This document shows positions 2,302-60,145 of a stretch of 64,000 nt of DNA, one piece after another; the stretch's first letter is position 1, and the number at the start of each line of letters is the position of its first letter. The translations under genes and the position numbers were made by a program. Under the pieces are notes generated by a model. That model ran no database searches. It was given only the letters and a program-made list of their open reading frames with translations, and was not told where the DNA came from. The DNA is from a virus (Duplodnaviria; Heunggongvirae; Uroviricota; Caudoviricetes), in IMG/VR virus record IMGVR_UViG_2799112923_000002, positions 1 to 64,000 of that record. One strand, 5' to 3'.

Positions 2302-2692
2302 ATGGAAACCTTTTGTAAAATTGCGTTAACTCAGATATTAAATATAAATGATATAGAGTTAATAATAATTACAAACGATAAAGTACTTAACAGATTCGAT
2401 TCTTCAAATATAGAGATGCAAGCATTGCTACAATGTGATTTTGAAAAGCATAAGTATCGATTAACTTTACATAGTAAAATTAGTCAATCGATGCTTTCTA
2501 TAATTATATGTCATGAATTAATTCATTTAAAGCAATATGAAAAAGGAGAATTAAAGGCTGCAAAAGGTGGAATGATATGAAAAGGAGATTTTTATAAAAA
2601 GGAAACTCCTTATTTTGACAGACCTTGAGAAATAGAAGCTAATAAAGAAATGGAATTTTTAGAAAAAGATGTATTAAAGTTGTATTATGAAT
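2302..2692 (+). CDS. Hypothetical protein with HExxH-like motif (CHELIHL), two TGA=Trp
   Basis: ORF 2302..2580 extends through TGA to a TAA at 2690-2692, overlapping the amidase start. Confidence 0.4.
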
Positions 2693-3352
2693 AATGTTAT
2701 AGAATTAAAACCAGCCGTGGTTACAGGTTATAGATTTTGAATATTATTAGATAATGGACATGCTAAATCAACCCCTGGAAAACGCTCCCCTAAGTTTGAA
2801 GATGGAAAGCAATTTTTTGAATATGAATTTTCAAGAGATATTGTAAAAAGAATTTCTTTAGAACTCGAAAAATTAAATATTCCTTATAAAATAGTTACTC
2901 CAGAAGTAGATCAAGATATAGCTTTGACTACTCGAGCAAATAGAGTAAATAGATATTGTTCAAAATTTGGAAAGAATAACTGTTTATTAATTTCTGTTCA
3001 TGCAAATGCTGCAGGGATGGGAGATAAATGAATGAATGCTAGAGGATGAAGTGTTTGAACAACAAAAGGAAAAACAAAATCAGATGAATATGCAGATGTT
3101 TTTTATAAAGAGGCAGAAAAACTCCTACCTTTATATGGAATGACTTTAAGAAAAGATCTTACAGATAAGGATTATGATTACGAATCTGATTTTACAATTC
3201 TTTACAAGAGTTGATGTCCTGCAATATTAACAGAAAATCTTTTTCAAGATAATAAAATAGATTGTGAATTTTTAATGTCTGAAAAAGGACGCGAAGTTAT
3301 TGCACAAATTCATGTAAATGCAATAAAAAAGATTGTAATTGGTGAATCTTAG
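2687..3352 (+). CDS. N-acetylmuramoyl-L-alanine amidase (Amidase_3-type endolysin), 221 aa with five TGA=Trp
   Basis: Manual translation gives LLISVHANAAGMGDKWMNARGWSVWTTKGKT...AILTENLFQDN, matching conserved amidase_3 blocks only if TGA=Trp; ends at TAG 3350-3352. Confidence 0.8.
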
Positions 3353-41393: not shown

Positions 41394-41465
41394 GCCCCAT
41401 TGGTCGATAGGTAAGGCAACTCTCCCTAAAAGAGGCATATGCGGGTTCAAATCCTGTATGGGGCA
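41394..41465 (+). tRNA. Aberrant tRNA-like gene; anticodon arm ctct-ccctaaa-agag would present CTA (reads UAG) with C33
   Basis: Perfect acceptor gccccat/atggggc and T-arm GGGTTCAAATCC; 3-bp D-stem; 4-bp anticodon stem. Confidence 0.4.
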
Positions 41466-41595
41466 CATTATATGTGAAATGTATCTAGGACGCTAGAATA
41501 CAAAGTAACCGGGTTTGGCTACAACCACACTGGAAGAAACCAAAAAGCACAGTGTATTAAAGAGGTACCTGGGAACAGAAACCCTCTTATTTTAT

Positions 41596-41668
41596 GGGGT
41601 CTTAGTGATAACGGTTAGCACGATGGCTTTGCAAGCCATAGGTACGGTTTCGATTACCGTAGGCTCCA
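41596..41668 (+). tRNA. tRNA-Ala (anticodon TGC)
   Basis: Anticodon arm atggc-tttgcaa-gccat, T-arm acggt-ttcgatt-accgt, acceptor ggggtct/aggctcc with G-U pairs. Confidence 0.6.
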
Positions 41669-41712
41669 CAAATGGATCGACCTCGTAGCTCAGCTGGTAG
41701 AGCATTACACTT

Positions 41713-42343
41713 TAACTAAAAATTAATTAAATGTATGAATAGTAAAACAAAAGGTAATTTAGGAGAAATTGCAGTAGCACACGAATTTATAAAGTGAGGA
41801 TGTACTGTATCTTTTCCATTCGGAGACAATGCAAGATATGATTTAATAGTAGATGATGGTCAAAATCTGAAGCGAGTACAAATCAAATATACAGATTGTA
41901 AATCAGAAAACAATTCTTGAGCATGTAGATGTGAAAGTAGTAAAAATCATACTACAAATAAAAGAATGGATAAATATATCGGAGATGTAGATCTTATGGT
42001 ATTCTATATTGCTGAATTACAAACGTGTATAATGTTTACTATGGATGAAATTGGTCAGAGAACTACTATTAATGTAAGAGAAGAATATCCAAGTAATGGT
42101 CAAAGAAAAGGAATTATCTTAATAAAAGATCATACATTTAATAATTATTTTAAGAGTGCACAACTGGAAACAGTTGATGTAGAAGCAGGCGAATTCGACG
42201 AAACTCCTAAAGAGGACAACGACGAGCTAAATTCACAAGTTTGTGATAAATGTGTAGAGACTATGCACCTGCAACCTAAGTCCAGAGGATAAGGTTATGA
42301 AATAGTCCAGACTACAACGATGTAAATCGGTCATGGTAACATG
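41713..42343 (+). mobile_element. Group I intron (relative of the 31185..31592 intron) carrying an endonuclease ORF
   Basis: Same insertion point (after ctt of the anticodon loop); the same core blocks gtagagactatg (R-like) and gaaatagtccagac (S-like) overlap and follow the 3' end of the ORF. Confidence 0.6.
41735..42292 (+). CDS. Intron-encoded endonuclease, PD-(D/E)XK / Holliday-junction-resolvase-like (about 185 aa, two TGA=Trp)
   Basis: Manual translation MNSKTKGNLGEIAVAHEFIKWGCTVSFPFGDNARYDLIVDDGQNLKRVQIKYTDCKSENNSWACRCESSK... then the listed ORF 41966..42292; GxxGExxV...YDL..DD...R.Q.K pattern. Confidence 0.5.
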
Positions 42344-42416
42344 AAGTAGTAGGTTAATGTAGTGGTCACGAGTTCGAATCTCGTCGGGGTCACTTTAAAT
42401 ATTAATATAAATAATT

Positions 42417-43525: not shown

Positions 43526-43597
43526 TGGGGTGTAGCTCAGAGGTAGAGCACGTGGCTGTTAACCACGGTGTCGAGATATCGTAATTCTCCATCCCAG
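43526..43597 (+). tRNA. tRNA-Asn (anticodon GTT) with non-canonical T-arm
   Basis: Acceptor tggggtg/catccca, D-arm gctcagaggtagagc, anticodon arm cgtgg-ctgttaa-ccacg; T-arm reads gaga-tatcgtaat-tctc (9-nt loop). Confidence 0.55.
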
Positions 43598-46382: not shown

Positions 46383-46454
46383 GCCAGCGTAGCTCAGTGG
46401 CAGAGCAGGGGTTTTGTAAACCTCAGGTCGAGATCTCGGTATTCTCCGCTGGCT
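46383..46454 (+). tRNA. tRNA-Thr (anticodon TGT) with the same non-canonical T-arm as tRNA-Asn
   Basis: Perfect acceptor gccagcg/cgctggc, D-arm gctcagtggcagagc, anticodon arm ggggt-tttgtaa-acctc; T-arm gaga-tctcggtat-tctc. Confidence 0.6.
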
Positions 46455-59842: not shown

Positions 59843-59870
59843 TTTATTAATAAGTATCAATAAGTGTATA

Positions 59871-59960
59871 GGAGCTTAGTGTAACGGTAGCACACAGGTC
59901 TTCAAAACCTGGGTAGCGGCGTCCAAAACCGCGGGTGTGGGTTCGAATCCTGCAGCTCCT
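59871..59960 (+). tRNA. Suppressor tRNA, anticodon TCA (decodes UGA), about 90 nt with long variable arm; candidate UGA-to-Trp decoder
   Basis: Acceptor ggagctt/cagctcc, anticodon arm caggt-cttcaaa-acctg (perfect 5 bp, anticodon 59902-59904), extra-arm hairpin gcgg-cgtccaaaa-ccgc, T-arm GGGTTCGAATCC. Confidence 0.65.
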
Positions 59961-60145
59961 GCAGTAAAATACAATTATTATGGAATTTATATTTATTTAT
60001 TCGATTCCTTGTATCATAAGTTTTTTGCTTATGAATCAATGTTACAAGAAAAATTTATTAGATTATCCAATGCTTTCTGCATTAAGTTGTATTATTCCTT
60101 TTGTAAATTGGATTGGATTGGTATGTTTTATATGTAAATTAAAAA

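Follow-up and report, generated by a model that had tools for sequence, protein, structure and literature searches.

Homing endonucleases of the PF11645 family are known from bacterial tRNA introns. The prototype, I-Ssp6803I, is encoded in the tRNA-fMet intron of Synechocystis (PMC3384342), and a 2026 survey of 333 bacterial tRNA introns reported PF11645 genes in tRNA-fMet and tRNA-Arg(UCU) introns, the latter in Bacteroidota and Campylobacterota, with tRNA-Lys not among the host genes (PMC13011429). According to a 2014 review, all phage introns then known were located in protein-coding genes, despite the many tRNA genes that phages carry (PMC3984707). Here we analyze a 64,000-nucleotide (nt) stretch of DNA, positions 1 to 64,000 of IMG/VR record IMGVR_UViG_2799112923_000002 from a virus of the Caudoviricetes, referred to below as the window. 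Positions 41679 to 42392 of the window very probably form a phage tRNA-Lys(UUU) gene in which a mobile group I intron separates anticodon position 34 from position 35, and this intron contains an open reading frame (ORF) for a predicted PF11645 endonuclease with two in-frame TGA codons.

Several further systems bear on the comparison. In T4 introns of the td, nrdB, and sunY type, endonuclease expression is kept late, which spares the folding of the ribozyme (PMC3984707), and the gene for the T4 endonuclease SegB is in the T4 tRNA cluster (PMC2330249). In the TGA-recoded Agate phages, an early gene contains a group I intron whose endonuclease uses TGA in preference to TGG, and it was proposed that the in-frame stops delay production of the endonuclease (Borges et al., bioRxiv 10.1101/2021.08.26.457843). 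Intron ORFs with TGA have also been described in zeta crAss-like phages (Yutin et al.). A literature search that covered few subscription journals returned no report, after the 2014 review, of phage tRNA genes with group I introns.

A probable split tRNA-Lys(UUU) gene

Exon 1 of the gene starts nine bases past a tRNA-Ala gene (41596 to 41669). The predicted parts are as follows, with a caret used here and below to mark a splice site.

41679 to 41712, plus strand: predicted exon 1 of tRNA-Lys(UUU), GACCTCG TA GCTC AGCTGGTA GAGC A TTACA CTT
41713 to 42353, plus strand: predicted group I intron of 641 nt between anticodon positions 34 and 35, preceded by U and ending in G42353, the omega-G
42354 to 42392, plus strand: predicted exon 2 of tRNA-Lys(UUU), TTAA TGTAG TGGTC ACGAG TTCGAAT CTCGT CGGGGTC A

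Exon 1 contains the 5′ strand of the acceptor stem, the D arm, the 5′ strand of the anticodon stem (TTACA), and loop positions C32, U33, and U34; its last base, U41712, is the U of the U·G pair at the 5′ splice site. Exon 2 provides U35, U36, A37, and A38, the 3′ strand of the anticodon stem (TGTAG), the variable loop, the T arm, and the 3′ strand of the acceptor stem. It ends in the discriminator A42392, and CCA is not encoded. When 41712 was joined to 42354 in silico, giving the predicted junction GAGCATTACACTT^TTAATGTAGTGG (the exon 2 side is also given as TTAATGTAGTGGTC), the product was a canonical cloverleaf of 73/74 nt that ARAGORN called as tRNA-Lys(ttt). U35 and A73, which we take to be host-dependent identity elements of tRNA-Lys, both occur in the spliced sequence. 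The split gene was missed by the default runs of both ARAGORN and Rfam. A preliminary description of the locus, made from the sequence alone, had given the 5′ half (41679 to 41712) and the pairings of the acceptor stem (gacctcg/cggggtc) and anticodon stem (ttaca/tgtag) as they are found here. Its 3′ coordinates were 10 nt off, so that exon 2 was placed at 42344 to 42381 instead of 42354 to 42392 and the intron was given a length of 631 nt instead of 641 nt.

Ribozyme architecture and covariation

A local search with the RF00028 covariance model, the check that the preliminary description had proposed, matched positions 42128 to 42332 over the full model (1 to 253 of 253) with 51.9 bits (gathering score, 50; E value of 3.6e-12). 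A run over the whole window at the gathering threshold returned no intron match, owing to its speed filters. The paired regions (P), loops (L), and joining segments (J) of the predicted ribozyme, along with the associated 3′ elements, are listed below.

41713 to 42153, plus strand: expanded L1 loop, 441 nt versus ∼8 to 12 nt in the ORF-less relatives L069, L043, and L078; houses the endonuclease domain
42150 to 42153, plus strand: P10 strand UUAA, the last four bases of L1, which can pair with the first four bases of exon 2 (UUAA)
42154 to 42158, plus strand: internal guide sequence GAGUG (3′ strand of P1), which pairs with exon CACUU (41708 to 41712), with G42154·U41712 at the splice site
42161 to 42176, plus strand: P2 hairpin, CAACUG-GAAA-CAGUUG, with compensatory variants in relatives
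42185 to 42189 and 42268 to 42272, plus strand: P3, GCAGG/CCUGC, which encloses J3/4, P4, P5, P6, and the 5′ strand of P7
42259 to 42263 and 42303 to 42307, plus strand: P7, GACUA/UAGUC, from the RF00028 alignment and one compensatory pair
42275 to 42294, plus strand: P8, which contains the ORF stop codon TAA (42290 to 42292) and is followed by J8/7, from the RF00028 alignment and covariation
42311 to 42353, plus strand: 3′ domain, with A, G, and omega-G42353 after its second hairpin
42311 to 42315 and 42346 to 42350, plus strand: omega-G positioning helix, ACUAC/GUAGU, with a U-A to C-G switch
42318 to 42329, plus strand: P9 hairpin
42332 to 42343, plus strand: second 3′ hairpin, CAUG-GUAA-CAUG, fully covarying

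The guide sequence is kept as TTTTAAGAGTGCA in L023, L024, L109, and L074 and as TTGAGCAC in the ORF-less relatives, and it covaries with the exon of the host gene. The pairing is CUU/GAG in tRNA-Leu, tRNA-Lys, and tRNA-Arg genes that are split at 34/35, CUUU/GGAG in tRNA-Lys at 35/36, GCCU/GGGC in tRNA-Arg at 33/34, CUGU/GCAG in tRNA-Asn, and UCU/GGA in tRNA-CUA. Another candidate guide, GTGAG/AAGTG near 41793 inside the ORF, was rejected because the ORF-less relatives place the Lys guide at 42154.

To count base pairs, 16 compact phage tRNA introns of the same family were aligned. In this alignment, 97.4% of the paired cells were compatible with pairing, versus 31 to 45% when the 3′ partner was slid by 1 to 3 columns, and compensatory changes were present in 25/40 pairs, a value reached by 0/500 shuffles. 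Overall, the observed values were reached in 0/500 shuffles for four of the five measures and in 2/500 for the number of further pair types. All five pairs of P3 covary across the 16 introns, as do pairs of P4 to P6, P8, and the 3′ hairpin, and the omega-G positioning helix changes from ACUAC/GUAGU to ACCAC/GUGGU in 7 of them. P7 shows a single compensatory swap, from A-U to U-A, although its invariance is partly by construction, a motif from P7/P8 having been used to retrieve the relatives. P2, which lies inside the ORF tail, reads CAGUUG/CAACUG in L023, CAAAAG/CUUUUG in L024, and UCUGAG/CUCAGA in L109. At the 3′ boundary, 18 family members (16 of them aligned) end in GTRGYANG^, where the eighth base, G, is invariant and position 7 is A, T, or G; the window intron ends in GTAGTAGG^. 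By covariance model, P1 and omega-G, and covarying core, 41713 to 42353 is a group I intron, for which self-splicing is predicted. It probably forms one family with the classic anticodon-loop introns of tRNA-Leu(UAA).

The predicted intron-encoded endonuclease

41735 to 42292, plus strand: predicted homing-endonuclease ORF, 185 codons plus TAA; domain in codons 1 to ∼139 (41735 to 42151), tail in codons ∼140 to 185

With TGA translated as tryptophan (Trp, W), the ORF product matched PF11645 with 100.9 bits against a cut-off of 26.1 (E value of 8e-29, profile positions 1 to 137 of 138), and its sole sequence match in the PDB was 2OST, which is I-Ssp6803I (E value of 1e-6). An AlphaFold2 (AF2) model was computed on the database protein P0001, which is 98% identical to the product of the window ORF. 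The predicted local distance difference test score (pLDDT) of this model was ∼90 for residues 1 to 146 and below 50 for residues 148 to 185. When the model was used as a Foldseek query, the top four matches were chains A to D of 2OST (E value of 5e-9, target template modeling [TM] score of 0.77), and the next matches were SPARDA nuclease domains, Hjc resolvases, and EcoRV. The residues E11, D31, Q49, and K51 are invariant among 34 family sequences and D36 is conserved in at least 90% of them; the conserved residues align with YDL...VQVK of 2OST. The putative catalytic roles of E11, D31, D36, Q49, and K51 follow those reportedly given by Zhao et al. (2007). The product had been described from the letters as a PD-(D/E)XK or Holliday-junction-resolvase-like protein, which agrees with the PF11645 match and with a fold that is closest to 2OST and also matched Hjc. 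We therefore predict that the ORF encodes a PD-(D/E)XK homing endonuclease of the I-Ssp6803I type.

The ORF sits in the loop of P1, which leaves the guide 441 nt from the splice site, compared with 8 to 12 nt in ORF-less relatives. The conserved protein ends in ...HTFNNYFK, precisely where the guide sequence starts, and the last ∼45 codons of the ORF are read through P1′ to P8, so the overlap between the 3′ coding end and the ribozyme core that had been noted earlier is real. The position of the stop codon varies among homologues: free-standing proteins have 139 to 141 amino acids (aa), whereas the intron-borne ones have 151 aa in L024 (stop in J3/4), 167 aa in L023 (P6), and 185 aa in the window (P8). 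The rate of synonymous substitution (dS) is 0.30 in the tail versus 0.85 in the domain, as would be expected if RNA, not protein, were under selection there. Taken with the AF2 model, the tail is predicted to be a disordered read-through of variable length.

In-frame TGA codons and the genetic code of the window

The two in-frame TGA codons that the preliminary description had pointed out are at codon 21 (41795 to 41797) and codon 62 (41918 to 41920); TGG is absent from the ORF, and under the standard code the frame ends after 20 codons. TGA is also found at both codons in L023, L024, L025, and L030 and at codon 21 only in L027 and L029. The ratio of nonsynonymous to synonymous substitution (dN/dS) is 0.14 to 0.21 over the domain, a stretch that extends well past the second TGA; this argues that the frame is translated through both. 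The relatives compared (P0002 to P0005) have protein identities of 71 to 78% and dS values of 0.85 to 1.3, where synonymous sites are saturated. Distant homologues in TAG-recoded phages (L002, L003, L006, L011, and L012) carry in-frame TAG instead. The earlier wording that the element is adapted to the recoded code is apt as a description, as both TGA positions recur in every close relative.

The window as a whole reads TGA as a sense codon, namely Trp, and derives from a TGA-recoded phage. ORF coverage of the window rises from 0.59 to 0.79 when TGA is treated as sense, and two TGAs of the tail-lysozyme gene are aligned to Trp residues of phi29 gp13, an outcome that masking them as X does not change; this comparison with a standard-code protein comprised these two sites. 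A PDB search with the putative amidase (2687 to 3352), made for more TGA sites, returned no match. The use of TGA divides the window into two blocks. From 1 to 26.5 kb, which contains structural genes (tail lysozyme and BspA-like genes), the ratio of TGA to TGG is 85:54, with the 85 TGAs in 24 ORFs; from 26.5 to 64 kb, which is rich in tRNA genes, it is 22:126, with several of the 22 in doubtful minus-strand (antisense) ORFs. With a ratio of 2:0, the endonuclease gene is a late-style gene embedded in an early-style block. TAG, in contrast to TGA, behaves as an ordinary stop codon: 13/74 ORFs end in TAG, mostly with short extensions or abutting the next gene, and recoding of TAG was rejected on this basis.

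59870 to 59962, plus strand: tRNA(UCA), an opal suppressor matched by ARAGORN and the Rfam tRNA model, presumably needed for the TGA codons of the ORF

This tRNA(UCA) is 93 nt long, has an extra stem-loop of ∼20 nt in the variable region, and is not closely similar to the Ser, Leu, and Tyr tRNAs of the window. The rest of the molecule (A1:U72, G73, and the anticodon arm CAGGU-CUUCAAA-ACCUG) resembles bacterial tRNA-Trp, such as that of E. coli. As a separate observation, a tRNA(CUA) that resembles an amber suppressor and has a weak D stem is present at 41394 to 41466, in a genome with TAG as a normal stop.

Homologues of the nuclease in phage tRNA clusters

We collected 46 homologues of the nuclease, nearly all from phage-like contigs and all but one with a PF11645 match. 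Members of the subfamily occur beside or inside tRNA-Lys(UUU) genes at ∼17 loci. In L001, L005 to L009, L011, L012, L025, and L151 to L153, a free-standing nuclease gene is directly beside an intact tRNA-Lys(UUU) gene, mostly 4 to 45 nt downstream of it, further away in L151, and on the opposite side in L005 and L025. In L004, L010, L023, L024, L101, and the window, the nuclease gene is inside a tRNA-Lys(UUU) intron, either in L1 (window type) or between the P4 region and P7 (L004/L010 type). A distant nuclease, that of L066, is in an intron of tRNA-Asn(GUU). The same intron occurs both with and without an ORF.

The occurrence of both free-standing and intron-borne copies at tRNA-Lys(UUU) fits a history in which a free-standing gene for a nuclease that targets tRNA-Lys moved into an ORF-less intron, and in which such tRNA-Lys-specific nucleases entered ORF-less introns more than once. 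A route of this kind to mobile introns, "collaborative homing," was reportedly set out by Bonocora and Shub in 2009 and by Zeng et al. in the same year. Among 185,579 representative bacterial and archaeal genomes, 7 loci were found, mostly on phage-like contigs of metagenome-assembled genomes and with the closest ones in dense tRNA arrays, and the scan of these genomes gave no evidence of an origin from a host tRNA-Lys gene.

Two other arrangements were seen among the homologues. L027 and L028 each contain two tandem copies of the nuclease gene. In L002 and L003, an apparent 3′ half of tRNA-Lys (TTAATCACG GGGTC GCGAG TTCGAAT CTCGC ...) is located at 2900 to 3000, upstream of the endonuclease gene; it is immediately next to the CCA terminus of the tRNA before it, and a 5′ half is not visible nearby. 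It could represent a remnant or the product of a rearrangement.

Proposed mechanism

From the sequence, fold, covariation, selection, and codon pattern of the locus, we infer a mechanism in which splicing, cleavage specificity, and TGA-dependent timing are predicted steps. The split gene would be transcribed within the tRNA cluster. As the structure suggests, CACUU and the guide GAGUG would form P1 with U·G at the splice site, and a free guanosine bound in P7 would attack after U41712. Omega-G42353 would then dock, P10 (UUAA/UUAA) would hold exon 2, and ligation of the exons would yield a normal tRNA-Lys. By homology, the presumed target of the nuclease is the intron-less tRNA-Lys(UUU) gene of a co-infecting relative, which would be cut in the region of the anticodon stem-loop, and repair of the cut allele would copy the intron in. 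Because both Trp codons of the ORF are TGA, the full-length enzyme would be made only with the phage tRNA(UCA) as suppressor. Until the code is switched, translation would end at codon 21, a point that lies ∼330 nt upstream of the ribozyme core, and this stop would delay nuclease production and keep ribosomes off the folding ribozyme.

A stronger form of this proposal, which is speculative and which we consider rather unlikely, is that the recoded stops act as a translational gate that allows the ORF to be threaded through the catalytic core, with the tRNA supply and code switch of the phage coupled to ribozymes and intron warfare. In early infection, with ribosomes halted at codon 21, folding of the intron would proceed and tRNA-Lys would be produced; once the switch to tRNA(UCA) had taken place, translation of the same RNA would continue through P1′ to P8 and yield the nuclease.

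Alternative readings of the locus

The window sequence on its own permits a one-base upstream shift of the splice sites (...CTT^T... and ...AGG^TTAA), in which case exon 1 would end at T41711, the intron at G42352, exon 2 would start with GTTAA, and the split gene would be tRNA-Asn(GUU). This assignment likewise obeys the U^...G^ rule, its loop has 7 nt, and it is the one reported by the intron mode of ARAGORN (-i), as Asn(gtt) with a 641-nt intron. It is nevertheless extremely improbable, as the shift loses the GAGUG/CACUU register with G·U at 41712, and omega-G is the eighth base of GTRGYANG throughout the family, position 7 being variable. L023 (..GTAGTATG^TTAA) and L024 (..GTGGTAAG^TTAA), which have the same intron and ORF, contain a single G before TTAA, so that only the loop CUUUUAA, that is, Lys(UUU), is possible there. 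In addition, among its 26 tRNAs, the window already has a tRNA-Asn(GTT) at 43526 and no other tRNA-Lys. The P1 register, the two relatives, the family 3′ end, and the tRNA complement thus favor Lys(UUU) over Asn; the association of the nuclease subfamily with tRNA-Lys(UUU) in ∼17 loci also speaks against Asn, as does the discriminator, which is A here but G73 in bacterial tRNA-Asn. The anticodon UUU given in the preliminary description is therefore upheld by comparative evidence (relatives and family 3′ end), rather than by the window alone. Endonuclease genes commonly decay after fixation, and the locus could be a relic of this sort, with the TGAs as real stops, the endonuclease as a pseudogene, and the intron as an immobile passenger that possibly still splices. 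The end of the standard-code ORF after 20 codons would fit, as would the finding that most bacterial tRNA introns are without endonuclease genes (PMC13011429). A relic is very unlikely, however, to have kept an open frame of 185 codons that matches PF11645 almost end to end, intact catalytic residues, and purifying selection past the TGAs relative to homologues of 71 to 78% identity. It would also not explain why four close relatives share both TGA codons and two others share the one at codon 21, and other genes of the window need TGA as sense.

The TGAs might be functional codons that have no role in timing, having arisen by neutral drift from TGG to TGA in an AT-rich, TGA-decoding genome or having arrived from another TGA-recoded phage. 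This explanation is quite possible, though on balance doubtful: the genome has a GC content of 34%, only two codons are involved, and the homologues in TAG-recoded phages carry TAG, so the gene takes on the local code. Set against this are the neighboring genes from 26.5 to 64 kb, which avoid TGA almost wholly; given a TGA share of ∼6% in the early block, an estimate for which the doubtful minus-strand ORFs were set aside, two TGAs out of two would have a probability of ∼0.004. Moreover, the TGA positions are kept across relatives that are saturated at synonymous sites, and the same bias is seen statistically in the Agate phages (P = 1.3e-3; Borges et al.). An unlikely but related proposal concerns the use of the enzyme, which might serve mainly as an inter-phage weapon that, like SegB, excludes the tRNA-gene markers of rivals, with the intron as a safe harbor. 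Most homologues are indeed free-standing and abut an intact tRNA-Lys(UUU) gene in a tRNA cluster, a layout like that of SegB (PMC2330249). Such a role is compatible with homing and has the same outcome at the level of the DNA, but the window gene is intron borne and sits precisely where its target is presumed to be, the classical arrangement for homing.

The preferred reading, a tRNA-Lys(UUU) gene split by a mobile group I intron with TGA-dependent timing of its nuclease, also faces evidence that weighs against it. The RF00028 score is barely over the gathering score and the match was missed in the whole-window run, and P1 is short, with 3 bp conserved in the family and 5 bp in the window. Late ribosome read-through of the core would be expected to hinder splicing, which is a cost to the proposal, and the apparent TGA gating could simply follow from A/T mutation pressure on a TGA-reading genome. 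Splicing, cleavage specificity, and suppressor charging all enter the mechanism as predictions, and the charging identity of tRNA(UCA) is uncertain, given its unusual extra arm. Nor can the amino acid inserted at TGA be read from the endonuclease family, in which no homologue has TGG at either column. Standard-code relatives have R, Y, F, or M at column 21 and F, Y, I, or V at column 62, and the homologues with W at these columns are all encoded by TGA, the database proteins having been translated with code 4.

A family of anticodon-loop introns in phage tRNA genes

To survey the intron family, IMG/VR was scanned for an intron-core motif (TGTGTAGAGACT N9-14 CCTA N15-45 AGTCCAGAC), which occurred in at least 119 viral stretches. 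We examined 80 viral loci (L031 to L110); the overall count also takes in the window and five earlier loci. Among the matches listed, 73/87 of those examined were inside intron-containing tRNA calls and ∼45 were in tRNA-Leu(UAA) at 34/35, many with HNH-type ORFs of 160 to 200 aa, and the other hosts were Lys(UUU), Arg(UCU), and Asn(GUU); these tRNA identities are approximate, from a rough automatic rule, except for those checked by eye. In L082 and L108 (3300022601_000107 and 3300022589_000146), an amber-suppressor tRNA(CUA) with the loop CUCU^AAA is split by a 689-nt group I intron that contains an HNH ORF with an in-frame TAG. As this suppressor tRNA is split, a code-switching tRNA would there depend on self-splicing.

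A blastn search of 50,697 GenBank phage records found no close relative of the window, only tRNA-sized matches and the ribozyme core of the crAss-like phage cr115_1 (L150, NC_055898.1, ∼30.5 to 30.9 kb, minus strand). The latter core, a 77% match, is unannotated and just upstream of the terminase gene. ARAGORN in intron mode calls a tRNA with a 228-nt intron in this stretch, and the exons, by eye, could form a Lys(CUU)-like loop, CUCUU^AA.

The window itself contains a second intron of the family.

31152 to 31631: second predicted split gene, tRNA-Arg(UCU), with exon 1 at 31152 to 31185, the intron at 31186 to 31592, and exon 2 from 31593

The splice junctions of this gene, which standard tRNA finders also miss, are CTT^...GTGGTACG^CTAA. 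The intron is 407 nt long and ORF-less, is enlarged by long insertions within the P5/P6 and P8 regions, and scores 41.9 bits with RF00028, below the gathering score (E value of 2.5e-9). Comparison with ORF-less relatives places its guide at 31195 to 31197 within TTAGAGTGC; a further candidate, GAGGCT at 31238, was rejected as part of P3/P4. The Arg and Lys introns share the 34/35 site, P1 CUU/GAG, J3/4, P7, and the GTRGYANG end. Their identity is 64% in the 5′ domain and 69% in the 3′ domain, at or below the median of either intron to 60 other phage tRNA introns, and the 3′ domain of the Arg intron is of a subtype (ACCACAAAC...GGTAGTGAAAACTATAGTGGTA) that differs from that of the Lys intron. 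A recent duplication of the intron at 31186 was rejected on the basis of these identities and subtypes. Thus, where the preliminary description called the two introns paralogous, the shared family and loop position hold, but the introns are not close paralogues and show no sign of duplication in this genome.

Genome setting

The window, at 34% GC, contains 25 tRNA genes found by ARAGORN and one found by Rfam only (46383 to 46454, 48.5 bits). Its other genes encode a tail lysozyme, a BspA-like leucine-rich-repeat protein, a GroEL-like chaperonin, and an amidoligase; a terminase gene was not identified in the 64 kb. ARAGORN also reported an odd tRNA at 31067 to 31143, with a 6-nt anticodon loop, as "tRNA-???(ta)."

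Implications

With standard tRNA finders, this phage would be scored as being without tRNA-Lys and tRNA-Arg-UCU, although AAA is likely a heavily used codon at its GC content. Because such finders miss split genes, the tRNA inventories of large phages are likely undercounted. The number of stretches with the core motif and the share of examined matches that are in tRNA genes suggest that anticodon-loop introns are common, and largely unannotated, in phage tRNA clusters. The locus offers a compact natural test case for the timing of expression by stop codon recoding, with a two-codon gate upstream of a folding ribozyme. Moreover, the system exists in free-standing, intron-borne, and ORF-less states side by side, from which the assembly of a mobile intron can be viewed. 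If the gating proposal were true, the tRNA supply of a phage, and even its code switch, might be coupled to ribozyme activity and to inter-phage intron warfare.

Comparison with known systems

I-Ssp6803I of Synechocystis PCC 6803 is the closest described counterpart, as in both systems the anticodon loop of a tRNA is interrupted by a group I intron that carries a PF11645 PD-(D/E)XK endonuclease gene. They differ in the host, which is cyanobacterial in one case and a phage in the other, and in the gene and site, which are tRNA-fMet at 33/34 in Synechocystis (PMC13011429) and tRNA-Lys(UUU) at 34/35 in the window. The proteins are ∼23% identical, and the recoded TGAs and the run-on into the core are features of the window. 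The introns of tRNA-Leu(UAA) in bacteria and plastids and those of tRNA-Arg(UCU) in Bacteroidota and Campylobacterota share with the window intron the site between U34 and N35, the short P1 CUU/GAG, and the overall core, whereas their genomes are bacterial or plastid and the window intron is viral, with tRNA-Lys as its host. The Anabaena tRNA-Leu intron resembles that of the window in the insertion site and the CUU/GAG P1.

Among phage systems, the T4 td, nrdB, and sunY introns are likewise self-splicing introns with endonuclease ORFs in a virulent-phage genome (splicing being predicted in the window), but they occupy protein-coding genes and are controlled by late promoters or RNA structure, in contrast to the tRNA host and proposed recoded-stop control of the window. 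T4 SegB resembles the free-standing homologues of the window family in being located within a tRNA cluster beside its presumed target, here tRNA-Lys(UUU); SegB is a GIY-YIG enzyme, while the window family is PF11645. The Agate endonuclease, like that of the window, is intron encoded, lies in the early region, and uses TGA over TGG, and the two may belong to the same gene family, although the Agate paper makes no mention of a tRNA host, the nuclease family, or an overlap with the core. The bipartite use of TGA in the window is the pattern of late-gene recoding described by Borges et al. Every part of the locus is of a known kind, and the recoding aspect has already been published in outline. 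New are a phage tRNA-Lys gene as the host, the assignment of the nuclease to its family, an ORF that is threaded through the ribozyme core, and the wide occurrence of this intron family among tRNA genes of phages.

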